Shown: positions 20,949 to 50,038, counted from the first letter of the stretch. The stretch: DNA of 64,000 nucleotides from Clostridium thermobutyricum (GCA_016842005.1 JAENYD010000001.1:102754-166753); one strand, 5' to 3'. Notes: generated from the letters alone by a model not told the origin. Made by a program: numbers and translations.

Positions 20949-23900
20949 ATGTTTATAGCTGATTTTCACATACATTCAAAATATTCAAGGGCCACCAGCA
21001 GGGAATGTGTACCTGAAGTGCTTGACATGTGGGCCAGGCGTAAAGGGATTGACGTTATAGGAACGGGTGATTTCACCCATCCGGCATGGCGGGAAGAATT
21101 AAAGGAGAAGCTTGTGCCTTCCGGAGAAGGTCTCTATGTCCTTAAGGATGATTTCAGTATAGGGGACAAGGTCTCAGAAGCACGTTCGAAGCCTCGTTTC
21201 ATGGTTTCCGGGGAAATAAGCTCAATATACAAGAAAAACGGAAGGGTAAGAAAGGTCCACAACCTGATACTTCTGCCCGGCCTGGAGTATGCTGAATCAA
21301 TATCCCGGCGGCTTGAGGCCGTAGGCAATTTGCATTCCGACGGCAGGCCGATATTGGGCCTGGACAGCAGGGACCTGCTTGAGATAGTCCTTGATATGTG
21401 CCCGGATGCCATATTCATCCCTGCCCATATATGGACCCCGCATTTCTCCCTGTATGGTGCATATTCCGGCTTTGACAACATCAGGGAATGTTTCGAAGAC
21501 CTTACCGGTTGTATATATGCCCTTGAAACGGGCCTTTCCTCTGATCCTCCAATGAACTGGCGTCTTTCCGCACTGGATGAGTTCACACTGGTTTCCAACT
21601 CTGATGCCCATTCCCCGGCAAAACTGGGAAGGGAGGCAAACATTTTTGATACCGGGCTTTCTTATACGTGTATATTGAATGCTTTGAAAAACCGCAGGAC
21701 AAAAGAATTTTACGGTACAATAGAGTTTTTCCCGGAGGAAGGAAAATACCACTACGACGGTCACAGGGCATGTAAGGTATGCTGGAAGCCTTCGGATACA
21801 AAGGCTGCACGAGGCGTATGCCCTGTATGCGGCGGCAGGATTACAGTGGGAGTGCTTCACCGGGTTGAAGACCTTGCAGACAGGGAAGAGGGGTTTGTCC
21901 CTCCGGCAGCAAGGCATTTTGAAAGCCTTGTTCCGCTTGATGAGATAATAGCCTCCTCAATGGGTTTTACTACTGCCAGCGCGAAGGTAAAGGGAAAGTA
22001 CGATGACCTGATACGGAGCCTCGGACCGGAGCTGTTTATACTCCGTGAGGCCCCGCTGAAGGATATTGAACTGGCGGCAGGACCATGCATAGCTGAAGGC
22101 ATCCGCCGGCTGCGATGCGGCAAGGTTGAAATACAACCCGGATTTGATGGAGAATACGGCAGAATTAAAGTAATAGACAAAAGCGAAATAGATATGCTTT
22201 CAGGTCAGCTGAGCTTTATTGCCCCTGAAATTATTGAAGATAAAAAGAACTTCACCGGTGAAGCCCAACCGGCACCGGTTTTAGCAGATAACTGTCCCTC
22301 AGGCGGCAGCGAGGACACTGTTAAAACTGCTCCCCCGGACATCCCCTACAGGTTGAACCGGGAGCAGTGGGAGGCTGTTTCGTCCTCCAGCCCGGCCATT
22401 GCGGTAATCGCAGGCCCCGGAACCGGAAAAACAAAAACACTGGTGTCCCGTATCGCATACCTTGTTGAAAAATGTGATGTACATCCCTCCCGGATAACCG
22501 CCGTTACCTTTACCAATAAAGCCGCAAACGAGATGCGCACCCGTCTGGAAAAACACTTTGGAGATAAGAGGACGGCAGATGCAATGGCCATAGGAACCTT
22601 CCACTCCATATGTCTTCAGATTTTATCCGGATGGAAGGGCAAGAATAACATAACCGTTATTGATGAGTATAACGCCCTTTCAATAGTCGAGGAAATATTA
22701 AAGGCCATGGAATTGAAAATTTCTCCGCGGGATGCGATGAGAGAAATATCACTGATTAAAAGCGGTGCATCGCCGGGAGAAAATAAAGAAATATCGATTC
22801 AAAAGGGGACATTCCGCAGCAAGGAATACCCGCATCGCAGCGGTGTGTCCCCTGACCTTATATATGATTTATACTGTTCACAGCTTGAACGTTACGGTGT
22901 AATGGACTATGACGATATTCTCCTCGAAGTGCTCAAAAGGTTTGAAGCTACAAATACAGAGGATATACCGGGCAGGAACCTGGATAACTCTTTCTCATAT
23001 CTGCTGGTGGATGAATTCCAGGATATAAATGGAATTCAGTACCGCTTGATAAAGGAATGGGGCAGAAAAAGCAAAAGTATTTTCATCATAGGTGACCCTG
23101 ACCAGTCCATCTATGGTTTCAGGGGCTCGGATTTCCGCTATTTTGAAAGGTTCAAAGAGGATTTTCCCGACACCCAGCATGTCCGGCTAACACAGAATTA
23201 CCGGTCCACACCTGAAATAATTGTTTGTGCCAAATCGGTAATCTCAAAGGAAACTGCAGGGGCGCTCACCCGTTCCCTGGATGCAACAAGGAAAAGCGGT
23301 GCCAAGGTACGCCTTGTAGAGACCCGTGATGAATTTTCAGAGGCTATTTTTGTTGCAAAGGAGATAAACCGTATGGTCGGCGGCGTTGACATGCTTGATG
23401 CCCATGCGCTGCCGGCATCCGGCGGAAAAAGGCCCGTGACAGGACACCCGAGAGGCTTTTCGGATATTGCCGTGCTATACCGTACCAACCGCCAGGCAGA
23501 AATTCTGGAGCACTGTCTCCGAAAAGAGGGCATCCAGTATGTGGTGGTGGGGCGGGACCAGTTCCTTTCGGATAAACCGGTCCGTGAAGCCATCGCCTTC
23601 TTCAAACTTTTGCTCAACCCCGGAGATATTGCTTCACTACGGGTATGCCTTAATGCAGAAGGCCTATATCCGGCAGACCTGAGCCAAAAGGTCCTGGAAA
23701 TCTATGCTGGGGCTGAGAAAAGCGTAGCTTCCCTTGCAAAAATCATAGAAGGCATCCAACTGCCACCGCATATCCCGGACAAACCCCTGCATTTGGCAGA
23801 GGTGTTAAGGAAATATAAAGGCACCATCAATAAAGAAAAACCGTATAAGATTATAGATGCATGGATCAACGACAACAACCTGTCAGGCATCAGGTCCATG

Positions 23901-24317
23901 GAACTGCTTTTAAACACGGCGGTTATGCATGATCAGATGTCTTCCTTCATTCAAACCCTTGTACTGGGACGTGAAAGTGATGTTGTCCGCAGCGGCAGCA
24001 AGGTTTATTCTCCGGATGCGGTATCACTGATGACCATACACGGAGCAAAAGGTCTTGAATTCCCCGCAGTGTTCATATGCGGCGTAGACGACGGCATGAT
24101 CCCTCTGAGGAACAGCAGGCATGCCCTTAATATCGGAGAGGAGAGACGGCTTTTCTATGTGGGGATGACAAGGGCACAGGATGAACTTATACTTCTGACT
24201 TCCCGTACCCCGTCGCCTTTTATTGCCAGCATACCTCAAGAGCATCTTGTAACAGAAAGGGCCTTTATCCAAAAGCCGTCGCCCCAGTGTGAGCAAATCA
24301 GCCTTTTTGACATATGA
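20949..24317 (+). CDS. Fusion protein: N-terminal EndoQ-like PHP-domain nuclease (TIGR00375 type, with Zn-ribbon) plus C-terminal UvrD/PcrA-family SF1 helicase
   Basis: N-terminus MFIADFHIHSKYSRATS...GIDVIGTGDFTHPAW (PHP). Zn ribbon CKVCW...CPVCGG. From aa ~470 the helicase motifs: Walker A GPGTGKT, DEFQD, QNYRST, TIHGAKGLEF, YVGMTRAQ. Confidence 0.8.
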   Translation: MFIADFHIHSKYSRATSRECVPEVLDMWARRKGIDVIGTGDFTHPAWREELKEKLVPSGEGLYVLKDDFSIGDKVSEARSKPRFMVSGEISSIYKKNGRVRKVHNLILLPGLEYAESISRRLEAVGNLHSDGRPILGLDSRDLLEIVLDMCPDAIFIPAHIWTPHFSLYGAYSGFDNIRECFEDLTGCIYALETGLSSDPPMNWRLSALDEFTLVSNSDAHSPAKLGREANIFDTGLSYTCILNALKNRRTKEFYGTIEFFPEEGKYHYDGHRACKVCWKPSDTKAARGVCPVCGGRITVGVLHRVEDLADREEGFVPPAARHFESLVPLDEIIASSMGFTTASAKVKGKYDDLIRSLGPELFILREAPLKDIELAAGPCIAEGIRRLRCGKVEIQPGFDGEYGRIKVIDKSEIDMLSGQLSFIAPEIIEDKKNFTGEAQPAPVLADNCPSGGSEDTVKTAPPDIPYRLNREQWEAVSSSSPAIAVIAGPGTGKTKTLVSRIAYLVEKCDVHPSRITAVTFTNKAANEMRTRLEKHFGDKRTADAMAIGTFHSICLQILSGWKGKNNITVIDEYNALSIVEEILKAMELKISPRDAMREISLIKSGASPGENKEISIQKGTFRSKEYPHRSGVSPDLIYDLYCSQLERYGVMDYDDILLEVLKRFEATNTEDIPGRNLDNSFSYLLVDEFQDINGIQYRLIKEWGRKSKSIFIIGDPDQSIYGFRGSDFRYFERFKEDFPDTQHVRLTQNYRSTPEIIVCAKSVISKETAGALTRSLDATRKSGAKVRLVETRDEFSEAIFVAKEINRMVGGVDMLDAHALPASGGKRPVTGHPRGFSDIAVLYRTNRQAEILEHCLRKEGIQYVVVGRDQFLSDKPVREAIAFFKLLLNPGDIASLRVCLNAEGLYPADLSQKVLEIYAGAEKSVASLAKIIEGIQLPPHIPDKPLHLAEVLRKYKGTINKEKPYKIIDAWINDNNLSGIRSMELLLNTAVMHDQMSSFIQTLVLGRESDVVRSGSKVYSPDAVSLMTIHGAKGLEFPAVFICGVDDGMIPLRNSRHALNIGEERRLFYVGMTRAQDELILLTSRTPSPFIASIPQEHLVTERAFIQKPSPQCEQISLFDI

Positions 24318-24332
24318 CAAAAATAACCGTTT

Positions 24333-25088
24333 CTACTGTTTGCCTACTGTCTGGAGCACTTCCTTGAGTTTCTCGCCTGTGGTTTTTTTTCTGCATTTAT
24401 CGCATAGTAATCCGTCCATGTCTATTCCTTTCTTATTCTTTATATACTCATACTGCTCCCGGGTCATGAAGTGATCTCCACACCGGGTGCATTTGAGGAG
24501 TTCAAAGGTCTTGTTCCATATCCTTCTTTTTCCCTGATGTTCTTCGATTTCTATGGCACCGGTAGGACATACATAGGCGCATGCCCCGCATCCGATACAT
24601 TCTGGAGGGGTTTCCTCAAAGGGTGTCGATACTTTTTTTATTGTCCCTCTGTTTACCATGGAAATGGCATGGGCGCCCACTTCATCGCATGCCCTTACAC
24701 ACAGGCCGCACAGGATGCATTTTTCCTCATTATCAATCTTAAATCTGGTTTCAGGAGGGATATTATATTCTTCGGATAACCGCTTAATAAAGTCACTGCC
24801 GGGGGCCCTGGCAGAGAGTAACCTCATAATGGTCCTCCGCATTTCCTTTATTCTTTCCGAGCAGGTGATGACCTCTATCTCTTTTGTAACAGGGTATGAG
24901 CAGGAAGTAACAATTTTCCGCCTTGAACCGTCGACAATCTCAACAATGCACATCCTGCAGTTTCCCTGCCCCGGCAGGGCTTCAGAGTGGCATAATGCAG
25001 GTATGTGTATACCGTTTCTTTCAGCTACGTTCAGAATGTATTCACCGTGCTCCGCACTGCACTCTTTACCGTCTATAATAATATTCAT
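24333..25088 (-). CDS. NuoG-N-terminal-like Fe-S protein ([2Fe-2S] ferredoxin domain plus two [4Fe-4S] motifs): putative electron-transfer subunit
   Basis: MNIIIDGKECSAE...IPALCH...CRMC (2Fe-2S); CILCGLCVRAC and CIGCGACAYVCP (4Fe-4S). Its start overlaps the stop of the NuoF-like gene. Confidence 0.7.
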   Translation of the reverse strand: MNIIIDGKECSAEHGEYILNVAERNGIHIPALCHSEALPGQGNCRMCIVEIVDGSRRKIVTSCSYPVTKEIEVITCSERIKEMRRTIMRLLSARAPGSDFIKRLSEEYNIPPETRFKIDNEEKCILCGLCVRACDEVGAHAISMVNRGTIKKVSTPFEETPPECIGCGACAYVCPTGAIEIEEHQGKRRIWNKTFELLKCTRCGDHFMTREQYEYIKNKKGIDMDGLLCDKCRKKTTGEKLKEVLQTVGKQ

Positions 25089-26935
25089 TCCGCCACCCCT
25101 CCCTTTATCTTAACAGCATTGAACCTGCAGACGTCCCTGCATGCTCCGCATTTAATACATTTTGAAGCATCTATCGTGAAATTCGACTTCAGTTGCCCTG
25201 AAATAGCCCCGGACGGGCAATTTTTCCGGCACAGACCGCAGCCTTTGCAGGCATCACCGTCGATGTAGTAACTGGTCAGCTCTTTACACGTACCTGCCGG
25301 ACAGCGTTTGTTGACTATATGCTCAAGGTATTCTTCCCGGAAGTATTTTATGGTGGTAATGACCGGGTTGGGGGCAGTCTTCCCGAGCCCGCACAGTGAT
25401 GCCTCTTTTATTGTCCCGGACAATTCAAGCAGCAAATCAATGTCTTCTTCCCGTCCCTTTCCCGCACAAATACCCTCTACCAACTCCAGCATCCTCTTTA
25501 TCCCTTCCCGGCAGGGAACACACTTGCCGCAGGATTCTCCGGCCAGGAAGTTCAGATAATATCTGGCCACCTCAACCATACAGGTATCTTCATCCATTAC
25601 TATCATTCCGCCTGACCCCATCATTGAACCGGCTTCATCCAGGGAATCGAAATCCACCTTCAGGTCCACCAGACTTTCGGGTACACAACCGCCTGAAGGA
25701 CCGCCGGTCTGAACTGCCTTAAACTTCTTGTTCCCCGGTATCCCTCCTCCGATATCAAAGATTATCTCTCTGAGGGTTATTCCCATGGGGACTTCTATCA
25801 ACCCGGTATTGTTTACTTTCCCCACGAGGGAGAATACTTTTGTACCTTTGCTTTTCCCGGTACCAATCGAGCTAAACCACCCGGCCCCTTTGATTATTAT
25901 CTCGGGGACGTTTGCCCAGGTTTCAACGTTGTTAAGCACCGTAGGCTGTCCCCACAGGCCCCTTTCGGTTGAATGAATATATTTTGTCCTGGGTTCTCCC
26001 ACATTGCCCTCAATAGAAGACATGAGCGCCGTGGATTCGCCGCATACAAAGGCCCCCCCGCCTCTCACGATCTGGATATCGAAATTGAACTCTCTACCAA
26101 GGATATTGCTTCCCAGAAATCTTCTCTCTTTAGCTTGTTCTATTGCCTTCGACATGTTTTCTATTGCCAGGGAATATTCGTCCCTGATATATATATATCC
26201 CTGTTCGGCCCGGATAGCATATGCACAGATGAGCATACCTTCAATAACACTGTGCGGGTCACCTTCCATTATGCTTCTGTCCATAAATGCACCCGGATCC
26301 CCTTCATCACCGTTGCAGACAACGTACTTGGGAAAACTGTTTACTTTATTGCACTGTTCCCACTTGCTGCCTGTGGGATATCCGCCTCCGCCTCTGCCTC
26401 TCAAACCGGATTTTTTTATCTCTGATATGACATCACCAGGGGATAAATTAAACAATGCCTTTTTCAATGCCTGGTAACCGCCGCGCTCGATATAGTCTTC
26501 AATGTTTGCCGGGTCCACCTCTCCTATATTCCGCAGGGCGATCTTTTTCTGTCTGCCGTAGAATTGGCTGTCTTTATGGGATTTTACCCTTTGCCCTGTG
26601 GAGGTATCCAGATATAGCAGCCTGTCAATTATTTCATCGTTTTTTATGGTTCTGTCTATTATTTCATCCACATCTGACACTTTTACATTACAATAAAAGA
26701 TGTCATCAGGATAAATTTTTACTATGGGCCCTTTTTCGCACAGTCCGTTACACCCTGTGGCCTTGACTACAGGACGGATTTTTGCTTTTATACCCGATGC
26801 CCCGGCTTTTCGTTTAAGCTCCTTATATATCTCAAGACTGTTATTAGCCAGACAGCCTGTACCACAGCAAACAAGAACCGTTTTTTTCTTCCTGCTATTG
26901 AATATCTTCACTGTTCCGGCCTCCAAACCCGTCAA
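25085..26935 (-). CDS. NuoF-like NADH-binding flavoprotein with an N-terminal thioredoxin-like [2Fe-2S] domain and a C-terminal 2x[4Fe-4S] ferredoxin domain (HydB/BfuB-type)
   Basis: GRGGGGYPTGSKWE (FMN/NADH site); ESCGKCVPCREG (N3 cluster); C-terminal CKGCGLCRKNCP and CIKCGACRDVC; N-terminal CCGTGC...C..C. Confidence 0.85.
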   Translation of the reverse strand: MTGLEAGTVKIFNSRKKKTVLVCCGTGCLANNSLEIYKELKRKAGASGIKAKIRPVVKATGCNGLCEKGPIVKIYPDDIFYCNVKVSDVDEIIDRTIKNDEIIDRLLYLDTSTGQRVKSHKDSQFYGRQKKIALRNIGEVDPANIEDYIERGGYQALKKALFNLSPGDVISEIKKSGLRGRGGGGYPTGSKWEQCNKVNSFPKYVVCNGDEGDPGAFMDRSIMEGDPHSVIEGMLICAYAIRAEQGYIYIRDEYSLAIENMSKAIEQAKERRFLGSNILGREFNFDIQIVRGGGAFVCGESTALMSSIEGNVGEPRTKYIHSTERGLWGQPTVLNNVETWANVPEIIIKGAGWFSSIGTGKSKGTKVFSLVGKVNNTGLIEVPMGITLREIIFDIGGGIPGNKKFKAVQTGGPSGGCVPESLVDLKVDFDSLDEAGSMMGSGGMIVMDEDTCMVEVARYYLNFLAGESCGKCVPCREGIKRMLELVEGICAGKGREEDIDLLLELSGTIKEASLCGLGKTAPNPVITTIKYFREEYLEHIVNKRCPAGTCKELTSYYIDGDACKGCGLCRKNCPSGAISGQLKSNFTIDASKCIKCGACRDVCRFNAVKIKGGVAE

Positions 26936-27392
26936 TAATTTTTTTTACCATTTTAGGAGTAACTTTCCCAAAGTATTTGCCATCAACAACCATAACAGGC
27001 GCTATTGCGCAGGAACCCAGGCAGTTTACCGTTTCAAGGGAAAACAGGCCATCTTCTGTAGTTTCCCCCGGTGAGATATTGAGCAGCTTTTGAATTTCAT
27101 CAATTATCAGGCCTGAGCCCCTTATATGGCATGCTGTTCCGTCACATACCTTTATTACATACCTGCCTTTGGGTTTCAGGCTTAATGCCTTGTAGAATGT
27201 AGCCATGCTGTACAGCTTGCTCATAGGAATATCAAGATATTCATGTATGACTGTCAGCGATTCCCTCGGCAGGTAGTTATATTGCTTCTGTATATCCTGG
27301 AGTATTGCAAGCAAGAACCTCTGTTCTTCAGGATATCTTTTCAGTATTGAGCGGGTACAAGAAATTATTTCCTGTGTCTTTTCAGAGGACAT
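26895..27392 (-). CDS. NuoE-like thioredoxin-fold [2Fe-2S] protein (HydC/BfuC-type)
   Basis: CDGTACHIRG...CLGSCAIAPVMVVDGKY is the canonical NuoE/HoxE motif set. Confidence 0.85.
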   Translation of the reverse strand: MSSEKTQEIISCTRSILKRYPEEQRFLLAILQDIQKQYNYLPRESLTVIHEYLDIPMSKLYSMATFYKALSLKPKGRYVIKVCDGTACHIRGSGLIIDEIQKLLNISPGETTEDGLFSLETVNCLGSCAIAPVMVVDGKYFGKVTPKMVKKIIDGFGGRNSEDIQ

Positions 27393-27429
27393 ATATGTTA
27401 CACCTTCTCCCAGATTAATAATCTATCGT

Positions 27430-27708
27430 TTAACCTCCTGCTACAACGGGAAAGATACTTATCTCGTCATCCGGCCTTAAAGGAGTGTCCAGAAATTCCA
27501 TATGAACGATATTCCTGCCGTTTACCAGAATAATTATCTCATCACTTAATTGACGGTCACCGGTAAATATTAATTCCCGGAATTTTTTACCGTATTTTAT
27601 GCACAGTTCATCCAGAAGCTCCTGAACAGTAGTACACCGGTTATATTCAATTTCCCTGGAACCTGTGTAGTCCCTTATATATGCAAAAAACTTTATTTTC
27701 ATGACCAT
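27430..27708 (-). CDS. MoaD/ThiS-family small sulfur-carrier-like protein (C-terminal GG)
   Basis: ~92 aa from MVMKIKFFAYIRDYTG..., ending ...ISIFPVVAGG. The ORF-track start at 27762 is probably too far upstream. Confidence 0.6.
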   Translation of the reverse strand: MVMKIKFFAYIRDYTGSREIEYNRCTTVQELLDELCIKYGKKFRELIFTGDRQLSDEIIILVNGRNIVHMEFLDTPLRPDDEISIFPVVAGG

Positions 27709-27800
27709 TAACCCCGATAAAGAAATTTTACCCGTGAGTTGACCGCACGAATATGCCGCCAACTCACAGGTAAGTATTCCATATTAATATTTTTTGTCCT

Positions 27801-29606
27801 TTACTTGAGCGCAAGCTCCTTCAACTTATTATCCTCAGGCACACCTTCACTGTTCCATCCTCTTACCTCATAGTACTCCTTGAGCATTACATCCAGTTCA
27901 ACTACTTTGCCTTTGGCGGGACCCGATGGCAGTGGTTCATTCAGCAGTCTGGGCGGCAGGGTATCATCCGCTTTGGTAAAGCCTGCTTCCAGATTGAACA
28001 GCCTCTCCAGGTTCCATATACGCTCTCCCTTTTGAAGTATTTCTTCATCAGTACAGTCAATGCCCAGGGCTGTCCTCAGCATGGAAGAAATCTCGGGAAG
28101 TCCGAGACCAAAGGTTGTAAAAAGACATATCCCGGCAGAATCTATGACTGCAGTAAGGTCCTGGAAGGTTTTCAGCCAGGATGCCTTGTCGGTTGTTACC
28201 AGGGGATCAAGTTTCTCAGGAACACCCAGAATTTCAGGTGATGTCAGGTATCCTCTTACATGGCAGGCCCCGCGGTTGGATGTCGCATATTCAAGACCCA
28301 TGCCCTGTACGCCCCTTGCATCGTATGCAGGCATCTCCTGTTTCTTGACCGTCATGGACAGTTCAGGGTGCCCGTAACCGGATGCCATCCTGTAAGACCC
28401 TTCCGCCAGTTTGTCTCCAAAGCCTTCCCTCAGACCGGTCATTTTTGTCAGCTCGACAATGGCGTCCGCATCCCCGAATCTCAGTTTCCTGCCCACTTCT
28501 TCTTCCGGGAGAATGCCTTTTTCACTCATTTCCATGGCGCATGCTATTGTAGAACCCATGGTAATCGGGTCAAGTCCCAGCTCATTACAGATGAAATTTG
28601 CCTTGCAGATCGCAGCCAGGTCTTTAACTCCGCAGTCCGCACCATAGGCCCAGCCTGCTTCATATTCAGGTCCTTCCCCAAAACCCTTGAATTTGCCTTC
28701 AGGAACCCTGGTAATCCTTCCGCAGCCTATGGAACATCCGAAACAGCCTTTGTTTCTTACAAGAAATTTTTCAGTCAGCGATTCTCCTCCTGTTTCGTCC
28801 GCATCTTCAAAATAACCGCCATCTCGCCAGTTCCTGGTCGGCAGGGCTCCCGATTGATTCAATATATTCACGAGTACTTCAGTTCCATAGGTAGGAAGCC
28901 CCGTACCCGCTACAGGGTCTTCTTTAAGTTTCCTTCTTGCATCAATGCATTTTTCGAGGAATGCGTCAGGCTCAGCGACCTGTACAGACCTGGACCCTCT
29001 TACAGCTACGGCCTTCAGATTTTTTGACCCCATTACCGCACCAAGGCCCGAACGCCCGGCGGCCCTGTGCTTATCGTTCATTACAGTGGCAAAGAGTACC
29101 AGTTTCTCACCTGCCGGTCCTATGCATGTAACTCTGGCATCCTCCGCCGTTTCTTCCAGCAGCTGGTCTGTGGTTTCAAATACGTTTTTGCCCCACAGGT
29201 GCCTGGCATCCCTCAGTTCTACATGGTCATCGTTTATCCAGAGATAAACAGGTTTTTTAGACTTGCCTTCAAAAATAATACCGTCGTAGCCGGCAAACTT
29301 CAGTTCGGGTCCGAAGTGTCCACCCGAGTTTGAAGCACCTATTGTTCCTGTAAGGGGGGCCTTTGCAATAACTTCATATCTCCCCGCACTTGCCGCAAAT
29401 GTGCCGGTAAGCGGACCCGTCATGAATATGAGTTTGTTGTCAGGGCTGAGGGGGTCAACCCTGGGGTCCACCTCATCCATCATTATTTTTGTACCCAGAC
29501 CTCTTCCTCCTATATATGCCCTGGCATCTTCCATGTTCAAGGCCTCTTTTTTAACAGTGCCTTCGGTCAGGTTTACACGGAGTAAAGTACCGACAAAACC
29601 GAACAT
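27801..29606 (-). CDS. aor: Tungsten-containing aldehyde:ferredoxin oxidoreductase (AOR family)
   Basis: N-terminal [46 protein letters not shown] is the AOR family consensus. 601 aa, full length. Confidence 0.9.
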
Positions 29607-30109
29607 TATTCACTCACCTCCCCGAACAAATCCTTGAACTTCTCGGCAATTACCTTTTTCCTGCCTACTGTGTTGGGCGCAGCCTCTTTAAATTCAATGG
29701 CCCCTGACGGGCAGAACTCCGCACATTTTGGTTCTCCTTCACAAAGGTCACATTTGACGATTTTCTTTTCTGTCGGGCTGAATGTTATGTTGCCAAGGGG
29801 ACATGCACTTACGCACAGTTTGCAGCCTATGCACTTCTTCTCGTCAATCACAACCGTCCCATCTTCGGCCTTACGTATGGCTGAAGTGGGACATACCTTC
29901 ATACAGGAAGGCTCTTCGCACTGCATGCACATGACAGGTACGGATATAGCTGCTTCATCGTATGATAGAACGGATACCCTGGAGTTTTTGGGGTTAAATG
30001 CTTTGATTTTGCTGAAGGAACATATCAGCTCACATGTCCTGCAGCCAATACATTTTTCGGGCGACAGCATCAGTATTTTACCCACTTTGCTTCTGGTCAC
30101 CATTTTCAC
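29606..30109 (-). CDS. Poly-ferredoxin with four CxxCxxCxxxCP [4Fe-4S] motifs (AorA-like electron-transfer subunit)
   Basis: [37 protein letters not shown] and [15 protein letters not shown]. Its stop overlaps the AOR start. Confidence 0.8.
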
Positions 30110-30577
30110 CTGGCACCAGATTGCACCTCCTTTTATTTGATATATAACCTTGTGTGAGACTGCAGCCCTTGGCTATCTGCATTCTGCACACAAAAAAATT
30201 TCATTATTTAAGATGCAAGAGACAGGTTGCATATAAAAAGCAAAGGAACCTCATCCTTCAAGGTGCAAAACACCTCAATTATTGATTCGGCTCCTTTGCT
30301 CATGGCAGGCATAACGATTGCTCCTTACACCCTTTCGCCTCACAAATCCCGCAGGGATCGGCAAGGTCGGAGTCTCGCTCATTATCTCATTATAATTTAT
30401 GAAATCTTTTAAAAAATCAGACCTGCAAATCATCAGGGTATTAGGTATACAGGATCGGTTGGTTATTTGATATAATCAAATTAGATTTGATATTATTCTC
30501 CTGATTTTATTATAATAAACAGTGCCCATAAAAATCAAACTGTTTTGCTATTTTTTTAATCATTTTTTATAAAAAAA

Positions 30578-30612
30578 AAGAGCCCGGGTATTCAGACTCT
30601 TTTCCTGTCCTG
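30578..30612. terminator. Bidirectional terminator-like hairpin flanked by an A run and a T run
   Basis: aaaaaaaaAGAGcccgggtattcagaCTCTtttcc, immediately 3' of the IclR gene. Confidence 0.4.
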
Positions 30613-30634: not shown

Positions 30635-31429
30635 TTACAGCACCACATTATGAACCATATCCGACATAACACGGCCGTAATGGGTTAGATGCCTGACCAT
30701 CCCCTTAATCTCCCGGTCGGGTAGTTTCTCAATGAACCCTATAACCGACAGGGCCCCCACTATTTTGTCCCCGAAACCTACGACAGGTACCGCAATTTCG
30801 CGGAAATCCCCGTATTCTCCGTCGCTTAGAATATAGCCCTGAAGACGAGCCTCGATCATTTCTTTTTCCAGCAGACCGGGATCGGTAATGGTCTTTTCGG
30901 TATAGGCCGGCATCCCGGTCATATTTAATATATGGTCCCTTTCGGCTTTGCTGATATAAGCCAGAAAAACCTTGCCGGAAGCGCTCGCATGCATGGGCAA
31001 AGCAGTGCCCAAATCCAAATGGATGCTGTCTCTTGAAGGACTTTCTTTTGCCAGGATGCAGCTCACCTTTGTATCGGTACGCAGGAAAAAATAGGTGCTC
31101 TGATGCACCTTTTCATGGAGTTCCCGGAGAACCTTGCCCATCTCGTCATAGGGGAAGTCCTTTCTCAAATAGCATTCTCCCACCCTGAAAGCCTCGGGTC
31201 CGATGCGGTAATCCTTGGTCTTTGGGTTCTGGATTATGAAGCCTTCCAGTAACAGGGTCGAAAGATAATGGTGCATACTGCTTTTGTTGATATCCATAGC
31301 TTCAGCCAGCTGGTTGAGACTGAGCCCTTCATTTACATGGGCCATGTATTTCAGGATCTGAAGGCATTTTTGAGCCGATGAAATAATTTTAGCTTCCTTA
31401 TTCATATTTTCACTCTTCTCCAAATACAA
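30635..31429 (-). CDS. IclR-family transcriptional regulator
   Basis: Typical N-terminal HTH (LSLNQLAEAMDINKSSMHHYLSTLLLEGFI) and a C-terminal effector domain. Confidence 0.8.
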   Translation of the reverse strand: MYLEKSENMNKEAKIISSAQKCLQILKYMAHVNEGLSLNQLAEAMDINKSSMHHYLSTLLLEGFIIQNPKTKDYRIGPEAFRVGECYLRKDFPYDEMGKVLRELHEKVHQSTYFFLRTDTKVSCILAKESPSRDSIHLDLGTALPMHASASGKVFLAYISKAERDHILNMTGMPAYTEKTITDPGLLEKEMIEARLQGYILSDGEYGDFREIAVPVVGFGDKIVGALSVIGFIEKLPDREIKGMVRHLTHYGRVMSDMVHNVVL

Positions 31430-32561
31430 GCATAGTTAAAGTTTGATTGATATGCAGCCCTTCGTACTGTTCCCCATAAGTGTTGAACCCACAGACGGGA
31501 GCTACGCTCAGCATCTTTGATATTTCCAGGGTGTTTCTCTGTACTTCTGATTCTATATATCTCAGGAGGCAGTTGAAAACAATCATTGCACTTATTTTAC
31601 CCAGTTTATCCCGGGCTGTGTCAATAGCCTTTCCGGTTTCCGCAATCAGATTTCCGGGGTCCATAACCGTAAGCCTGCTGTTTTCGGTTATCCTGCTGAA
31701 AAACTTCAGGCCTCCGTCTTTTTCCGCCCGCAATGGGCTTCTCAGATAATAATTCCCTCCGATGTTGATACCCAAAGGATGTGTAACAAACATCTCCGGA
31801 TTTAAATTATTGGTTTTTGAGCCAATGGCTCTGCAGTACTCGCTTACGGCAGGCCTTCCGTTAAACTCGTATACCACCCTTTTTTCGGGGTCAGCTTTGG
31901 TAACCCTTAATTTCTTCTGGGTGGGCAGATAATTATTTGTACAAATGGTGGCAAAAGGCGTGTTGGTCTTTATCAGGATAAATATCAGGGCATTGCTGAA
32001 TATTTCAAAATTAAGATGCAGGAAAACCTTATTGAAACTATAGTCGTCTCCTGCGGAACCCCCTACTGTTTTTAACCGCCGGGCGGTTTTTGTAATCCCC
32101 ATGATTACAAACTCTTCCACTTCGGAGGTCCCATCGATCAATACAATTCCCACATATTTGTCATCCAGCTGGTCCGGCGTGGTGTCCAGCTGACGGGCGG
32201 CTTCGGTAACTGCGACCCTGGCAGCACTGATCGGGTCTTTGTCAATATTTTTCCCCAATCCGATACCCACCTTCATGCTATCGGAGTTAAAGCTCATAGC
32301 TGCAAGGCTATTGCTTTGAAAACCCCGGGAGGTAATGACTACACCGGTAGTACAGCCGGCAAATATAGCCGAGGCAAGACAGGGATCCCGGGATGCTCCT
32401 TGGAATGCCTTTGCTATTTTTGCCTGGTCAAATTGACTGGAACAGAAGTATAAGACCAGCCGGGTATTCTCCTGCTTTATCTGTTCTATAACACTGGTTA
32501 CCGTTTTTTCTTCCTGCCCGAATTCTGCATGACCCACCTTTACCCCAAAATTCCCCCCCAC
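31410..32561 (-). CDS. FIST-domain (FIST_N + FIST_C) sensory protein
   Basis: 383 aa with the two-part FIST architecture. It overlaps the downstream IclR gene by 20 nt. Confidence 0.65.
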   Translation of the reverse strand: MGGNFGVKVGHAEFGQEEKTVTSVIEQIKQENTRLVLYFCSSQFDQAKIAKAFQGASRDPCLASAIFAGCTTGVVITSRGFQSNSLAAMSFNSDSMKVGIGLGKNIDKDPISAARVAVTEAARQLDTTPDQLDDKYVGIVLIDGTSEVEEFVIMGITKTARRLKTVGGSAGDDYSFNKVFLHLNFEIFSNALIFILIKTNTPFATICTNNYLPTQKKLRVTKADPEKRVVYEFNGRPAVSEYCRAIGSKTNNLNPEMFVTHPLGINIGGNYYLRSPLRAEKDGGLKFFSRITENSRLTVMDPGNLIAETGKAIDTARDKLGKISAMIVFNCLLRYIESEVQRNTLEISKMLSVAPVCGFNTYGEQYEGLHINQTLTMLVFGEE

Positions 32562-33146: not shown

Positions 33147-33220
33147 TGCGCCCTGAGGGACTCGAACCCCCGACCAACTGATTCGAAGTCAGCGACTCTA
33201 TCCAACTGAGCTAAGGGCGC
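33145..33220 (-). tRNA. tRNA-Arg (anticodon TCG)
   Basis: Reverse complement GCGCCCTTAGCTCAGTTGGATAGAGTCGCTGACTTCGAATCAGTTGGTCGGGGGTTCGAGTCCCTCAGGGCGCACCA. Cloverleaf with encoded CCA. Confidence 0.85.
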
Positions 33221-33229
33221 ATATGAACC

Positions 33230-33303
33230 TGGAGCGGATGAAGGGAATCGAACCCTCGCGACTGGCTTGGAAGGCCAGGGCTCTACCACTGAGCTACACC
33301 CGC
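33230..33303 (-). tRNA. tRNA-Gly (anticodon TCC), copy 1
   Basis: Reverse complement GCGGGTGTAGCTCAGTGGTAGAGCCCTGGCCTTCCAAGCCAGTCGCGAGGGTTCGATTCCCTTCATCCGCTCCA. Confidence 0.85.
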
Positions 33304-33323
33304 ATCATGCCTGAAGAAAATAA

Positions 33324-33401
33324 TGGTGACCCATCCGCGACTCGAACGCGGGACACCCTGATTAAAAGTCAGGTGCTCTACCGACTGAGCTAATGGGCCA
33401 C
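33324..33401 (-). tRNA. tRNA-Lys (anticodon TTT)
   Basis: Reverse complement GTGGCCCATTAGCTCAGTCGGTAGAGCACCTGACTTTTAATCAGGGTGTCCCGCGTTCGAGTCGCGGATGGGTCACCA. Confidence 0.85.
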
Positions 33402-33405
33402 AAGA

Positions 33406-33482
33406 TGGCTGGGGCGGCAGGACTCGAACCTGCGGAATGCCAGAGTCAAAGTCTGGTGCCTTACCGGCTTGGCGACGCCCCA
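33406..33482 (-). tRNA. tRNA-Gln (anticodon TTG)
   Basis: Reverse complement TGGGGCGTCGCCAAGCCGGTAAGGCACCAGACTTTGACTCTGGCATTCCGCAGGTTCGAGTCCTGCCGCCCCAGCCA. It has the U1-A72 pair and the bacterial tRNA-Gln pattern. Confidence 0.85.
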
Positions 33483-33501
33483 AAGAAAACTGATTTGTAG
33501 A

Positions 33502-33579
33502 TGGGGTGGATAGTGGGAATCGAACCCACGACCTCCAGAGCCACAATCTGGCGCTCTAACCAACTGAGCTATACCCACC
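33502..33579 (-). tRNA. tRNA-His (anticodon GTG) with encoded G-1
   Basis: Reverse complement GGTGGGTATAGCTCAGTTGGTTAGAGCGCCAGATTGTGGCTCTGGAGGTCGTGGGTTCGATTCCCACTATCCACCCCA. The extra 5' G pairs with discriminator C73. Confidence 0.85.
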
Positions 33580-33603
33580 ATATTAACATTATATTAAGAT
33601 AAA

Positions 33604-33680
33604 TGGTGCGCCTGCAGGGACTCGAACCCCGGGCACACGGATTAGAAGTCCGTTGCTCTATCCACCTGAGCTACAGGCGC
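33604..33680 (-). tRNA. tRNA-Arg (anticodon TCT)
   Basis: Reverse complement GCGCCTGTAGCTCAGGTGGATAGAGCAACGGACTTCTAATCCGTGTGCCCGGGGTTCGAGTCCCTGCAGGCGCACCA. Confidence 0.85.
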
Positions 33681-33688
33681 ATGTAACA

Positions 33689-33762
33689 TGGAGCGGGTGA
33701 AGGGAATCGAACCCTCGCGACTGGCTTGGAAGGCCAGGGCTCTACCACTGAGCTACACCCGC
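33689..33762 (-). tRNA. tRNA-Gly (anticodon TCC), copy 2 (one substitution relative to copy 1)
   Basis: Reverse complement GCGGGTGTAGCTCAGTGGTAGAGCCCTGGCCTTCCAAGCCAGTCGCGAGGGTTCGATTCCCTTCACCCGCTCCA. Confidence 0.85.
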
Positions 33763-44042: not shown

Positions 44043-44774
44043 TTAATATCCCAGTCCTCTTACAATCTCATGATCAAGAATTTTTTTCCGTTCCTTCCAG
44101 TCTGGCATATGAACGGTTAAAAAATCATAGAATTCTTTATTATGCTTAGGATAAAGAAAGTGTGTTAACTCATGTAAGACAACATAATCAATACAGGATG
44201 GCGGAGCTTTGTACAAATAATAATTAAGATTAATTTTACTGTGCTTTCTGGAGCAGCTACCCCAAAGGGTCTTCATTTTCCTTACTTGAAGTATCGGTTT
44301 AGCAATATCATGTTTAGCAATAATGGGATATAGCTTATCAATAACCGTTAGAAAATACGACTTGCTTTGTTTTTGCCACCAACGCTCAAATTGCTTTTGC
44401 AAAGCCTGTTTATCATCAGGAACAGGAGATTGTATATTAATAAAGCCTTCTTTTTGTTCTACTTTATATATTTTAGATTCACTGACAATAATCCTCTTCT
44501 GCCTCCCTAGAATACGCGTTGATACTCCACTGTGTATTCTTGTTTCAACTTCATTAGCCTCCGCTTCTTTATAATAATTTAATGACTTTTCTATCCATGC
44601 AGTCTTGCTGTTCAGATATTCATGTATCCATGCATCTGATGCGCCAAACGGAGTAGTTAGCTTAACAGTACCATTTGGAAACACTTTAAGCCGGATTCGT
44701 TTTACATTTTTACGCTCAATAATTACTTCCACTTTATTCAATGAGCCTGTTAAAGATATCTCTATTTTATTCAT
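44043..44774 (-). CDS. YgjP-like (DUF45/WLM, SprT-like) zinc metallopeptidase-motif protein
   Basis: HELTHFLYPKHNKEF (HExxH). The family is typically linked to hsdR loci. Confidence 0.8.
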   Translation of the reverse strand: MNKIEISLTGSLNKVEVIIERKNVKRIRLKVFPNGTVKLTTPFGASDAWIHEYLNSKTAWIEKSLNYYKEAEANEVETRIHSGVSTRILGRQKRIIVSESKIYKVEQKEGFINIQSPVPDDKQALQKQFERWWQKQSKSYFLTVIDKLYPIIAKHDIAKPILQVRKMKTLWGSCSRKHSKINLNYYLYKAPPSCIDYVVLHELTHFLYPKHNKEFYDFLTVHMPDWKERKKILDHEIVRGLGY

Positions 44775-44777
44775 GGC

Positions 44778-47700
44778 CTAATACCTGCTCACCGCCGTTT
44801 TCATGAGAGCCTCCAACATAATATCTATTTCTTCTACTGTTAGACCAACATCATGTTCATCAATAAAATCCCAAATCAAATCATCAAGGGCTTGCTCCAT
44901 GTCTTTATGCACAGCTACATTATGACGCCAGTCTACTTTTGCTCGATCGGCAATGGCCTTCTTTATTTCTATGGCCAATTGTCCCATAGCTTCTTCTAAT
45001 TCCGGCGAAATATCCCTTATCGCCCTGGAAACAACATCCTGAACAGATCCATAAAAAGCTTTTGCATCACTATCGTTATCTATACAGGTCGGGTAATGAT
45101 GACCGGTATAACCCCTTTTAAAATCCTCTGCTATTCTTTCCATATTTGACAAATAGGAAGCATCGTTCCTAGACGCTTTGTATTCAGCAAGAGTTTCTCT
45201 TACTTGCTCAGAAAATTTCTTGTATAGTAACGGATCATCATAACGATATGTTTCCAATTCTCCTACCATACGGGTACGGATGGCATCCCCCTTTGCAGAT
45301 TTGCTTTCCAACATTTCCAACTGCTTCTTCATATCTTCAGTGTTGTGTATAGAAACGGGTTCCACAACGATTTGACTGGGTTCGGAGAGCACAAAATTAT
45401 TTAATAGACTTCTAATACCATCTTCATATTTACTGAAATCTACTTTCTCATAGTATCGAAGCAAAACCGCCCCTCGCAGTTTCTGAAAGTGGAGTAGATC
45501 CTTTTTGTATTCTTGAATCTGTTCATATCCTATAGAATTATACAGAGCATAGCTTCCCATAGCCAAATCCAAAAGGCGTGAGTAGATTGAAAGCTTTTCA
45601 TAAAATTTCTTTCTTATATCATCGTCCGCTAATACGCTTTGCCAACCTTCAGAATTATTTCGGTCAAACTCCTTCCCTTCGAATATTGCCCACAGTTCCT
45701 GATATGCATTTTTTAGCTTGAGCTTTTGGTCTTCTGCCCCAAGGATAGCGTTCTTAATGTCTTCCGTATCATACCCATCCATTCCGGATTTTGTATCAGA
45801 ATACATATCCATGGCAGTATTCAGTTTGCCAAAGATACCCCAATAATCCACAATAAGGCCAAAATCTTTGCCCGGGTATACCCGATTTACGCGGGCAATG
45901 GCCTGCAATAATGAATGCTCCTTCATTGGTTTGTCCACATATATCACAGCAGCAACAGGTGCATCAAAGCCGGTTAGCAGTTTATCCTTTACGATAAGCA
46001 TTTCCACATCTTCACCGCCAACAAAGCTATTCTTTGCCCAATCGTCATATTTCTCATAATTGTTCCCGAAAAGTGGTTCCACCTCTTCTTTAAAGAATGT
46101 CTTTATCTTCTCTTTACTTTCGCTGGTAAGTTCGTCCCCTTCTTTAACATCTTCGGGCGATATTACCACCGCCGTCTTAATACCGCCAAGCCTCTTTAAC
46201 GACTTATGAAGCTCAATAGCGGCGGGGCGGGATGAGGCTGCTACCATAGCCTTAAAACCCTTTGGCTTGGCATAACTGATAAAGTGTTCGTGAATATCAA
46301 AAGCTACCATATCTATACGCTGTCGTGTTTGAGCCAACGGCAAAAAACGACTCCATTTCCTCTTCATGTCCTCCTGTTCACTGGGCTTCAATGGTGCAAT
46401 GATGTATTTAAGATAATCATCAATCTTATCACTCGTCACATCTTGCGGAATTATCCTGCCTTCGTAGACAAGTGGAACAATGACACCATCTTTCACCGCC
46501 TTATCTATAGGATAACTATCAATAAGCGGACCAAACCTCGCGTAGGTATTAAACTTATCTTTCTTAAGCAAAGGAGTACCGGTGAAACCTATTTTAGTCG
46601 CATTGGGTAGTACATCAACCATAAAATTGTGAAGTTGTCCCGATTGTGTCCTATGGCTTTCATCCACTAGTAAAAAAATATTGTCATCCTTAATCCTGAC
46701 TCTGGTTTTTGCCGCTGTATCAAATTTATGCACAAGGGTAGTAATAACAATTTCTCCTTTATCCTTCAAGAGACCAATTAACCCTTTACCTGTCTTGGCT
46801 CGGCTCGGACTCATCTGTGCCTTTACGAAATTATCTCTAAGTTGCTTATCTAAATTGATACGGTCGCTGACAAGCACAAAGCGGGGATTCTTGATATCGG
46901 GATCCGATATTATTTTCTTTACCAGCATCACCATGGTAAGGGATTTACCGCTGCCCTGCGTATGCCAGATTACACCGTTTTTCGTATTCTTTCCATCTTC
47001 GCCTTTTATACGTTTCATAGCTTTCTGTATGCCAAAGAACTGCTGATAACGGGCAATTTTTTTTACATTATTATCATACAGAATGAAATAACGAATAATC
47101 TCCAGTAACCTCTCCCTAGAAAGCATTGATACAATAGTTCTATCCTGTTCAACTATTTTTCCATCAGGACTAACATTGCCGCATTTTTCTTGCTGCCATT
47201 TATAATCCTTTTCCCTCCATATACTGAAGTGCTCGAAAAGCGTTCCGCAGGTCCCATATTTAACGATATTGGGGTTCATCGCCATTACGATTTGGACGAA
47301 TTTAAAAAGATGGGGGATATAATCAGGCTGCCAGTTACGTATGTTTTGTGTTACACCTTCATCCACATTTATACCGGATTTTTTACATTCAATCACCACT
47401 ATTGGAATACCGTTTATAAGTAGCACAATATCAGGCCGTGTATATTTTCCATTAGACCTTTCAACCGAAAATTCGTCTGTAACCTGCCATATATTGTTCT
47501 CCGGATGTTCCCAATCAATGAACTTCAAGTCAAAGGACTGACGCCCTCCGTCAAACAGTTCTTCTTCATAGCTGCTGCCGGAAATTAACATATCATAAAC
47601 AGTCTTGCTTGCCGACATCAGGCCTGAGACAAGCGGTACATCAATATCATTTATTGCCTTACCTATAGAGCGGTCAGAGAAAGGGGTTTGCTTTCCTCTG

Positions 47701-47885
47701 TAAAAGAAGGACTGGCGCTGCAGAAATTCACGCAGAACGTCAGTAAAAATTACGTTTGAAAGTCGGCCACGCAGGATTTCCGCCTGTGAACGTGGAACAT
47801 ACTGATACCCTAGTTTTTCCAGCACTTTTATCGCCCTGTCCTGGCTCTCCGGACGTTCATTGAACATAGTATGGTCTGGCATCAA
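44778..47885 (-). CDS. hsdR: Type I restriction enzyme R subunit
   Basis: 1035 aa. Helicase motifs TQGSGKSLTM (I) and LLVDESHRTQSG (II). N-terminal nuclease region. Confidence 0.9.
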   Translation of the reverse strand: MMPDHTMFNERPESQDRAIKVLEKLGYQYVPRSQAEILRGRLSNVIFTDVLREFLQRQSFFYRGKQTPFSDRSIGKAINDIDVPLVSGLMSASKTVYDMLISGSSYEEELFDGGRQSFDLKFIDWEHPENNIWQVTDEFSVERSNGKYTRPDIVLLINGIPIVVIECKKSGINVDEGVTQNIRNWQPDYIPHLFKFVQIVMAMNPNIVKYGTCGTLFEHFSIWREKDYKWQQEKCGNVSPDGKIVEQDRTIVSMLSRERLLEIIRYFILYDNNVKKIARYQQFFGIQKAMKRIKGEDGKNTKNGVIWHTQGSGKSLTMVMLVKKIISDPDIKNPRFVLVSDRINLDKQLRDNFVKAQMSPSRAKTGKGLIGLLKDKGEIVITTLVHKFDTAAKTRVRIKDDNIFLLVDESHRTQSGQLHNFMVDVLPNATKIGFTGTPLLKKDKFNTYARFGPLIDSYPIDKAVKDGVIVPLVYEGRIIPQDVTSDKIDDYLKYIIAPLKPSEQEDMKRKWSRFLPLAQTRQRIDMVAFDIHEHFISYAKPKGFKAMVAASSRPAAIELHKSLKRLGGIKTAVVISPEDVKEGDELTSESKEKIKTFFKEEVEPLFGNNYEKYDDWAKNSFVGGEDVEMLIVKDKLLTGFDAPVAAVIYVDKPMKEHSLLQAIARVNRVYPGKDFGLIVDYWGIFGKLNTAMDMYSDTKSGMDGYDTEDIKNAILGAEDQKLKLKNAYQELWAIFEGKEFDRNNSEGWQSVLADDDIRKKFYEKLSIYSRLLDLAMGSYALYNSIGYEQIQEYKKDLLHFQKLRGAVLLRYYEKVDFSKYEDGIRSLLNNFVLSEPSQIVVEPVSIHNTEDMKKQLEMLESKSAKGDAIRTRMVGELETYRYDDPLLYKKFSEQVRETLAEYKASRNDASYLSNMERIAEDFKRGYTGHHYPTCIDNDSDAKAFYGSVQDVVSRAIRDISPELEEAMGQLAIEIKKAIADRAKVDWRHNVAVHKDMEQALDDLIWDFIDEHDVGLTVEEIDIMLEALMKTAVSRY

Positions 47886-49186: not shown

Positions 49187-50038
49187 CTACAATTCTTTGG
49201 TTTTATTTTTACTGCTAATTCTTTTAAACTCTTTTTTTTCAAGCTGTTTTATGCTTTCATCCGGGGTAGGCAGGTCTTCAGGCATGGTTCCTCCCAGTTT
49301 TCTAATTGTATCCCGTACGGTTTTACCCACTTCATAATGAGTTTTATTTGCCTCTTCTTTTCCCTTTATTTTTTCTCTTCTCATTTTTTCATCAGTTTGA
49401 GTTGCACGGAATAGATTGGCTGCAAGTTAAGTACTGCCCATATGGTCAAGTATTTTTTGATTCTTTTTTAGTTTCTTTCTTCTATGTATTTCTTTAACCC
49501 CTAGCCCTCCATAAAGGCCCTGATAGCCCTTATTTTGGAACACCGCATACTCTTGCGGAGTTTCAATCCCTGCCATCTGTGCTGCTTCAGCCAAAGATTT
49601 ATTATGCTCACGGATTTCTCTCCGGATTGTCAGACGTTTTGTGTTTTCATCCAATTCATCGAACTCATCCTGCAATTCCTGTCGTCTTGTCTGAATGGCA
49701 AAATAGGTCTGACCAAGAGCTATAATTTTCTTCCTCGGATCCGCATTCTGCACGATTAAATAACATGCATACCGCGAAAGCTCAATATCTTCTATTCTAC
49801 GTTGAGCGCCTTTAGGCAATTTTATCATTTTCGTGACGTCACGAAAATGATCTTTTACATTGACATTACTATTTTCACATGCTTCCTTTGCTTTTTCCAA
49901 AACCTTGTGAAAATTCTCCCAGCGGGCATATTCGAGAACTGGAGCCAATTCCCTTGCCAACCAGCATTCTACTCCATATTCGTTAATATGCTTTATTTCA
50001 TCAAAGGTTTTGAAACTGTATTTTTCAATATTACTCAT
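49187..50038 (-). pseudogene. dinD: dinD/rhuM-family gene (DNA-damage-inducible protein D-like) interrupted by a single in-frame TAA
   Basis: The 203-aa ORF (…AGQTYFAIQTRRQEL…KNQKILDHMGST*) and the downstream 65-aa ORF (…ANKTHYEVGKTVRDTIRKLGGTMPEDLPTP…) are the same frame. The only break is the TAA at 49427-49429. Read-through gives ...HMGST*LAANLFRATQTDEKMRREKIKGKEEANKTHY..., colinear with E. coli DinD ...HMGSTELAANLFRATQTEEKLKRDG...ANTTHF.... Confidence 0.75.

Follow-up and report, generated by a model that had tools for sequence, protein, structure and literature searches.

What enzyme is made when a tungsten aldehyde:ferredoxin oxidoreductase (AOR) is encoded in one gene cluster with homologs of NuoE, NuoF and the N-terminal part of NuoG? 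This question is raised by a locus of Clostridium thermobutyricum (24333-30109, minus strand) that lies in a stretch of 64,000 nucleotides (nt; GCA_016842005.1 JAENYD010000001.1:102754-166753), the whole of which is here called the window; positions are counted from its first letter. An earlier note on this DNA had described six co-oriented minus-strand genes and proposed that they encode a Bfu-type AOR linked to both NAD(H) and ferredoxin. Our analysis agrees with this proposal and makes it more specific, in that the region very probably encodes a Class IV tungsten-containing oxidoreductase (WOR), WorABCSL (a Wor-Bfu or Type 2 Bfu enzyme), with its genes in the type 1 order worS-worL-worX-worC-worB-worA. 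Purified WOR1 enzymes of Acetomicrobium mobile and Eubacterium limosum have the proposed double linkage (PMC9304861, PMC12318220, PMC11725836), and the five subunits predicted here are clear orthologues of such an enzyme.

Open reading frame (ORF) calling places the six genes as they had been described, and Pfam and NCBIfam confirm each description. All lie on the minus strand between 24333 and 30109. The first, worS (29606-30109), encodes a polyferredoxin of 167 amino acids (aa) with 16 Cys, Fer4 dicluster-ferredoxin domains (Pfam) that would hold four [4Fe-4S] clusters, and a C-terminal helix extension, and is the putative nanowire subunit. The catalytic subunit, a tungsten-bis-pyranopterin aldehyde oxidoreductase, is encoded by worL (27801-29606; 601 aa; Pfam AFOR_N at 3e-88 and AFOR_C at 6e-154). 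Next come worX (27430-27702, in an ORF that extends to 27762), a ThiS/MoaD family gene whose 90-aa product, counted from the likely ATG at 27702, ends in ...VVAGG, and worC (26895-27392; 165 aa; Pfam 2Fe-2S_thioredx at 1e-50), which encodes a NuoE/HydC/HoxE-like [2Fe-2S] subunit with cluster C1. The cluster is completed by worB (25085-26911 with a likely GTG start at 26911, in an ORF of 616 aa that extends to 26935), which encodes a BfuB-type extended NuoF with the site for flavin mononucleotide (FMN) and NAD(H), and worA (24333-25088; 251 aa; Pfam Fer2_4 and two Fer4), which encodes a short BfuA of the NuoG/HoxU N-terminal type. The worS/worL and worB/worA junctions overlap by 1 nt and 4 nt (ATGA), respectively, while the worC/worB overlap ranges from 17 to 41 nt by the start chosen. 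The best worB start is the GTG at 26911, which lies 8 nt past a GGAGG, gives a protein as long as that called in the closest relative (608 aa), and leaves an overlap of 17 nt; with these 1-, 17- and 4-nt overlaps the three junctions are translationally coupled. The worL-worX gap is 98 nt, or 38 nt from an alternative TTG start of worX, and the worX-worC gap is 37 nt.

The identity of the complex follows from its best solved relative. All five enzyme subunits have their best solved-structure match in one entry, PDB 9mqx (41.5-63% identity), which shows the electron-bifurcating tungstopyranopterin aldehyde oxidoreductase WorABC(SL)3 of A. mobile as solved by cryo-EM (PMC12318220). In addition, all expected sets of cofactor ligands are present: those of B1-B5 in WorB, C1 in WorC, A1, A2, A4 and a Zn finger in WorA, S1-S4 in WorS, and the single cluster of WorL. 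For subunits other than WorA, conservation was assessed by aligning orthologues pulled from 51 syntenic loci, and the residues of the window reported below are those kept in at least 90% of these orthologues.

For WorL, the best match is 9mqx_D (1.9e-261, 63% identity), followed by the Pyrococcus furiosus AOR (1aor, 9e-219), and the [4Fe-4S] ligands C288, C291, C295 and C494 are conserved. By PDB match scores, its four best solved relatives include AmWOR1, PfAOR and AaAOR, while FOR, WOR5 and BamB score far lower; the former three are named members of clade 87 in a WOR tree of 92 clades (PMC12318220, PMC13328260). WorS matches 9mqx_E best (1.9e-37, 41.5% identity to A. mobile WorS) and AorA (8c0z_C, 5e-36) second, and 16 of its 16 Cys are conserved. 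Its alignment to 9mqx_E spans the C-terminal helix, in which K143 and F149 are conserved and I stands where 9mqx_E has F145, and in WorL D156 takes the place of the salt-bridge partner E156. The WorS helix thus appears to match the nanowire-assembly helix of A. mobile WorS, and the assembly itself is a prediction.

The remaining subunits form a Bfu core. WorC is closest to 9mqx_C (2.2e-46, 51% identity) and then to bifurcating HydC and NfnC (1e-36 to 1e-41), with conserved C83, C88, C124 and C128. WorB had been claimed to be an extended NuoF of the bifurcation type, and this holds in full. Its Pfam domains run from an N-terminal thioredoxin-like 2Fe-2S domain through Complex1_51K, SLBB and NADH_4Fe-4S to a C-terminal 2x Fer4; its best match is 9mqx_B (1.8e-237, 59% identity), followed by bifurcating HydB and NfnB (1e-194 to 1e-232), whereas respiratory NuoF aligns to its core only (residues ~135-545), and its score against the NuoF equivalog (486.5) falls below the cut-off of 558.65. 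The ligand sets conserved in WorB are those of the extra N-terminal [2Fe-2S] cluster B5 (C23/C24, C28, C62, C66), the [4Fe-4S] cluster B1 (C469, C472, C475, C515), a 3Cys-1His set (C452, H539, C545, C550) that fits the B2 zinc site described in PMC11829005, and the two C-terminal CxxCxxCxxxC motifs for the [4Fe-4S] clusters B3/B4 (C563/566/569/573 and C593/596/599/603).

WorA matches 9mqx_A over its full length (4.5e-58, 43% identity). In a 17-sequence alignment (alignment A1), 16 of its Cys are invariant and fall into four sets, C33/44/47/63 for the [2Fe-2S] cluster A1, C124/127/130/134 and C164/167/170/174 (CxxCxxCxxxC) for A2 and A4, and C200/203/229/232 (CxxC...CxxC) for a Zn finger; the same alignment contains no His-Cys3 motif between C63 and C124, and neither cluster A3 nor cluster A5 has a place in the protein. 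This is the published WorA signature, a Zn finger and adaptor helix in place of clusters A3 and A5 (PMC12318220, PMC9304861). Modelled by AlphaFold (mean pLDDT 75), WorA has a terminal helix at residues 230-249, and the best fold match of the model is again 9mqx_A (TM 0.69, E 7e-23, 241 columns). By analogy with this structure, the C-terminal Cys4 Zn finger and helix may be the docking element for WorS.

Other identities for the cluster were considered and rejected. A Class III WOR of the AorABC type would have a gene for the FAD subunit AorC/WorN, which is found neither in nor beside the operon; three extra genes of the NuoE, NuoF and NuoG-N types are found instead. A NuoEFG module of complex I is at odds with a WorB that scores below the NuoF cut-offs and carries extensions, with a WorA of 251 aa against ~600-800 aa for NuoG, and with the absence of nuo membrane genes from the window. 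A Class IV benzoyl-CoA reductase (BamB-I) was rejected since BamB (4z3w) gives only 6e-68 over a partial alignment, compared to 1e-203 to 1e-261 for AORs, and no Hdr-like genes are found nearby.

The gene order is widely conserved. Scanning a WorA alignment against one genome per species gave 566 relatives; 80 loci were fetched, 66 of which had enough upstream sequence to be informative. The order worS-worL-...-worC-worB-worA is colinear in 50 of these 66, so that the co-conservation of AOR and NuoEF(G) genes expected in the earlier note is borne out by this neighbourhood survey. The hosts of the related loci include Clostridia, Coriobacteriia (Slackia), Treponema and metagenome-assembled genomes (MAGs) labelled as methanogens. 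The nearest WorA (88% identity) is encoded on a 7.4-kb JGI metagenome contig (L081), on which the genes likewise run L-X-C-B-A and are followed by a similar large convergent gene. Existing annotations usually name such genes as subunits of "NADH:ubiquinone oxidoreductase" or "hydrogenase diaphorase". Among the methanogen-labelled MAGs, contigs assigned to Methanobacteriota and Methanocorpusculum (L073, L074; the labels come from binning) carry complete or partial wor-Bfu clusters. Class IV WORs are known from some methanogens, and worX is stated to be missing from archaeal clusters (PMC13328260); unlike this statement, L073 has a MoaD-like match between worL and worC.

The MoaD-like gene itself is present in the operon as the earlier note had it, and 42 of the 50 syntenic loci have such a gene between worL and worC. 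Its product matches Pfam ThiS (1e-18) and TIGR01687 moaD_arch (79 bits against a cut-off of 49.5). It corresponds to the published worX (named in PMC13328260 and PMC11725836) and is presumed to be an accessory for maturation of the pterin/tungsten cofactor and no subunit of the enzyme (PMC13328260).

How such an enzyme would work can be described by homology to the A. mobile complex. WorL would oxidise an aldehyde to the acid at the tungsten-bis-pyranopterin site, and the electrons would pass from its [4Fe-4S] cluster to clusters S1-S4 of WorS, whose units may be linked by their C-terminal helices to form a short nanowire. Electrons would then enter WorA at A4, where WorS is proposed to dock by way of the Zn finger and C-terminal helix, and continue through A4-A2-A1 to B1 of WorB and on to the FMN. 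Two aldehydes would supply four electrons, to be split at this point: a hydride would reduce NAD+, and two low-potential electrons would reach ferredoxin through the mobile WorC [2Fe-2S] cluster and B3/B4 of WorB (PMC12318220). As a proposed benefit of this coupling, very low concentrations of aldehyde could still be oxidised against high concentrations of acid. The tungsten and FMN content and the obligate coupling to simultaneous reduction of NAD+ and ferredoxin have so far been demonstrated for two enzymes alone, those of A. mobile and E. limosum (PMC9304861, PMC12318220), and for the C. thermobutyricum complex tungsten, a 1:3 stoichiometry and obligate coupling are predicted properties.

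Several other uses of the same genes were weighed against the bifurcating aldehyde oxidoreductase. Should the NuoEFG-like module be a diaphorase only, as in AorABC or in NAD-dependent HydAB or formate dehydrogenase (FDH), the complex would be a simple NAD-linked AOR for which ferredoxin is no co-substrate. In complex I, NAD-dependent FDH and Hox hydrogenase, NuoF and NuoE modules work simply as NADH dehydrogenases, and all of these are among the weaker matches of WorB and WorC; aldehyde oxidation (~-560 mV) has a potential low enough, in principle, for direct reduction of NAD+ (PMC9304861). We nevertheless consider this very improbable: sites B2-B5, absent from non-bifurcating BfuB homologs (PMC9304861), are all present and conserved in WorB of the window, whose closest solved relatives are all bifurcating, and the A. 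mobile orthologue reduces neither NAD+ nor ferredoxin without the other (PMC9304861). A second possibility is that the enzyme runs in reverse in vivo, as a confurcating carboxylic-acid reductase that uses NADH and reduced ferredoxin to make aldehydes or alcohols; the earlier note had listed acid reduction with these two donors among the activities to assay. Bfu enzymes are reversible in principle (PMC9304861), as are WOR and AOR enzymes, and monomeric AOR reduces acids with reduced ferredoxin in acetogens (PMC12727526). The energetics make the net reaction thermodynamically unlikely, since the mean of NADH (~-280 to -320 mV) and ferredoxin (~-500 mV) lies well above the acid/aldehyde couple (~-560 mV; PMC9304861), and acid reduction would therefore be energetically harder than if ferredoxin were the only donor. 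Characterised members, moreover, serve aldehyde detoxification (PMC11725836, PMC12318220), and Pfam scans found no alcohol dehydrogenase in the neighbourhood, so we give reversal even less credence than a simple NAD-linked enzyme.

The locus could also hold two enzymes that are neighbours by chance and work independently, with WorSL acting as an aldehyde:ferredoxin oxidoreductase and the Bfu core serving another partner. The CBA module is indeed portable, because 16 of the 66 informative loci carry WorA-like CBA genes without worSL and beside another catalytic partner, and in E. limosum the worSL transcripts are ~3-fold above those of worXABC (PMC11725836). On the other hand, the window contains no other catalytic partner, S-L-C-B-A are kept together in the 50 colinear loci, the promoter and terminator scan called no strong promoter or terminator in the worX-worC interval, and the homologous complex co-purifies as WorABC(SL)3 (PMC12318220), a stoichiometry that accounts for the 3:1 transcript ratio in E. 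limosum. Two separate enzymes therefore seem scarcely credible. Among loci of the portable kind, a short BfuA and BfuBC lie beside a molybdopterin formate dehydrogenase, an [FeFe]-hydrogenase and polyferredoxins in Clostridium drakei (L021, 5699-13446), and beside a CO dehydrogenase and a polyferredoxin in Sporomusa silvacetica (L013, 7706-13317). Modules like these match the published FdhFeFe-Bfu and the predicted Codh-Bfu, which are other Type 2 Bfu enzymes (PMC9304861).

We next turn to how the bifurcating aldehyde oxidoreductase may be regulated. The 525-nt 5' leader of worS contains, at 30275-30384 on the minus strand, an aptamer of the riboswitch family for the molybdenum or tungsten cofactor (Moco/Tuco, RF01055), a feature absent from the earlier sequence-only reading. 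It scores 39.4 bits in Rfam, where the gathering score is 36, and its alignment has a deletion in place of stem P3. Absence of P3 is the signature of the tungsten-cofactor subtype (PMC11725836), and the element can accordingly be classed by sequence as a Tuco-type riboswitch, with the cofactor as its predicted ligand. Using a covariance model built from this aptamer and those of three relatives, we found homologous aptamers in the relatives. In 22 of the 50 syntenic loci the aptamer precedes worS by 160-250 nt, and in one further locus by ~2 kb. Across 30 aptamer matches, 91.6% of cells are paired and both sides have changed in 21 of 28 pairs, while slid partners give 41-51% paired, though these figures are biased towards the structure, the alignment having been fitted to our own covariance model. 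Five relatives have another Tuco-type riboswitch shortly after worA, where it presumably heads the operon that follows (L043, 11037-11164; L053, 7368-7494; L077, 10948-11083; L068, 11830-11960; L016, 10894-11021).

Upstream of the aptamer, a consensus scan identified a sigma-70-like promoter candidate, TTGATT-18-TATAAT (30509-30538, minus strand; 10/12), which is a pattern match only, in a region where 19 promoter-like sites were found against 13.2 expected by chance. A candidate terminator hairpin with a U-tract (30229-30301, minus strand) overlaps the other end of the aptamer: the conserved 3' strand of P1, GCAAAGGAGCC, pairs with GGUUCCUUUGC, which is directly followed by UUUUUAUAU. The GCAAAGGAGCC/GGUUCCUUUGC hairpin is seen in the minimum-free-energy fold of the leader (z = -4.6), and we propose it as the expression platform. 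In this model, the terminator would compete with aptamer P1 and cofactor binding would allow read-through, making an ON switch, a polarity that makes sense for an enzyme that requires the cofactor. By gating expression, the Tuco-type riboswitch would restrict synthesis of the apo-enzyme to times at which the cofactor is present.

Between leader and coding sequence, the start of worS has candidates at 30109, 30103, 30100 and 30085. Six relatives (L010, L011, L017, L020, L022 and L023) share a stretch between the ribosome-binding site (RBS) and worS, GGAGGTG-AACTGGCATCGG...(A/G)TGACCAG, that encodes M/V-T-R-x-K and has its counterpart in the window at 30085-30130 (minus strand). In L011 and L020 this frame has the look of a very small leader ORF, as it ends at a TAA overlapping the 'MSKIL' start of worS. 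In the window the M/V-T-R-x-K frame continues into worS, which makes the worS start there uncertain.

Farther upstream lie genes for an IclR-family regulator (30635-31429, minus strand) and a FIST-domain protein (31410-32561, minus strand; NosP, NF041558, 285 bits, below the cut-off of 450), which overlap by 20 nt. These had been described as divergent regulators of the operon and as a sign of dedicated control. Both are in fact co-directional with it on the minus strand, and tblastn found no homolog of either protein within 9 kb of worA in the 80 related loci, for which reason we leave them out of the system. A terminator-like hairpin followed by T9 after the IclR stop (~30571-30603), read by eye and not called by the terminator scan, was a further ground for rejecting them. 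The usual partners described for NosP-like sensors are kinases or c-di-GMP enzymes, which makes the pairing with IclR unusual. A joint scheme can still be drawn, in which a transcriptional ON Tuco switch, with the 3' P1 strand as the 5' arm of the terminator, would be combined with a second, signal-dependent control by the FIST (NosP-like)/IclR pair that responds, e.g., to nitric oxide, redox state, or an aromatic acid or aldehyde. These layers are not described for E. limosum, and we regard the scheme as unlikely.

The wider neighbourhood is unrelated in content. Pfam scans of 30 further ORFs revealed only opp-type ABC transport, two-component and sigma-54 regulators, type I restriction-modification, gatCAB, ligA and sporulation genes; none for tungstate uptake, pterin synthesis, or alcohol or lactate metabolism was found among them. 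The worA stop and the end of a convergent gene (20949-24317, plus strand) are 15 nt apart; this gene encodes a UvrD/REP-type helicase of 1122 aa, whose N-terminal extension of ~460 aa has no Pfam match at E <= 1e-5. Seven tRNA genes (33147-33762, minus strand; Rfam RF00005, 60-72 bits) lie upstream of the FIST gene. The type I restriction-modification genes (44778-51627, minus strand; HsdR of 1035 aa, HsdS of 434 aa and HsdM of 530 aa) have a lower G+C (~0.38-0.42) than their surroundings, and a YgjP-like metallopeptidase gene (44043-44774) lies beside them.

A number of observations count against the picture of a tungsten-dependent bifurcating enzyme under a terminator-based switch. The predicted metal, stoichiometry and coupling derive from 41-63% identity to a characterised enzyme. 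The basic/hydrophobic pattern of the WorA C-terminal helix is only partly kept in the alignment to 9mqx_A (R236->K, F242->L, Y238/A239->T/G). The neighbouring genes give no hint of the physiological aldehyde. In the leader, the terminator-type platform was found in the window only, a crude pattern search of the relatives giving none, and the E. limosum platform is reported as translational control by RBS sequestering. Because that crude search did not find the same arrangement in the relatives, we keep the terminator platform as an inference only.

For annotation, the six genes should be named worSLXCBA and their product a bifurcating tungsten aldehyde oxidoreductase. Enzymes of this kind are already well characterised in the literature and the operon is a further copy, such that the value of the present analysis is mainly in the correct annotation. 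Indeed, the premise of novelty in the earlier note, that characterised AORs either use ferredoxin alone or are linked to AorC, had been overtaken in 2021; PMC9304861 credits the bifurcating activity to Schut et al. 2021. The catalogue of Class IV WORs gains a lineage of Clostridia whose LigA matches one assembly at 80%, MAGs labelled "Bacillota bacterium" at 73%, and cultured Mahella or Caldicoprobacter at 61% or less. The link between riboswitch and worS reaches well beyond Eubacterium. The operon further implies that the organism uses tungsten, detoxifies or metabolises aldehydes and conserves energy as reduced ferredoxin.

Among known systems, WorABCSL is the prototypical Type 2 Bfu enzyme and belongs to a large group in Firmicutes (PMC9304861); a classification from 2026 covers 102 Class IV WORs, with operon types SLCBA (type 1) and CBASL (type 2), with worX sometimes between SL and ABC (PMC13328260). 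The A. mobile enzyme (AmWOR1; PDB 9mqx; Schut 2021, Feng 2025) agrees with the complex in the window in its five types of subunit and in the predicted set of cofactors; shared features include a WorA that lacks A3 and A5 and ends in a Cys4 Zn finger and a helix, a WorB with B1-B5, and a WorS with four [4Fe-4S] clusters and a C-terminal extension. The two differ in gene order, which is type 2 CBASL in A. mobile and type 1 SL(X)CBA here (PMC13328260), in host lineage, A. mobile being of the Synergistota and C. thermobutyricum of the Clostridia, and in several contact residues of the WorA helix.

Other relatives share only parts of this architecture. AorABC of Aromatoleum aromaticum (a Class III WOR; 8c0z) has an AOR-clade catalytic subunit (9.5e-203) and a MoaD-like accessory gene in its operon, as in the window, but there a single FAD subunit, AorC/WorN, reduces NAD+, whereas the window has a Bfu core of the NuoE/F/G-N type. 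HydABC, NiFe-HydABCSL and NfnABC have the BfuBC core in common with the window; their BfuA is long, with an H-cluster, a remnant of it or an FAD domain, whereas BfuA of the window has ~250 aa and the third substrate is handled on a separate WorSL.

Closest in overall layout is WOR1 of E. limosum (wor1SLXABC; Putumbaka 2025), which like C. thermobutyricum belongs to the Bacillota. Its operon sits behind an RF01055 Tuco riboswitch (PMC11725836) and has the same architecture, in which a P3-less RF01055 element is followed by worS, worL, a ThiS/MoaD-like worX and three Bfu genes. E. limosum was not included among the loci fetched, and the nearest Eubacterium there is E. barkeri (L075), with 65%, 58% and 44% identity to WorL, WorB and WorA of the window, respectively. 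The two systems seem to differ in their expression platforms, the one in E. limosum being reported as translational and RBS-sequestering while the leader in the window looks terminator-based. In E. limosum, Tuco-type elements also precede tupABC and iron transporters, and a CcpA link to lactate metabolism has been described.

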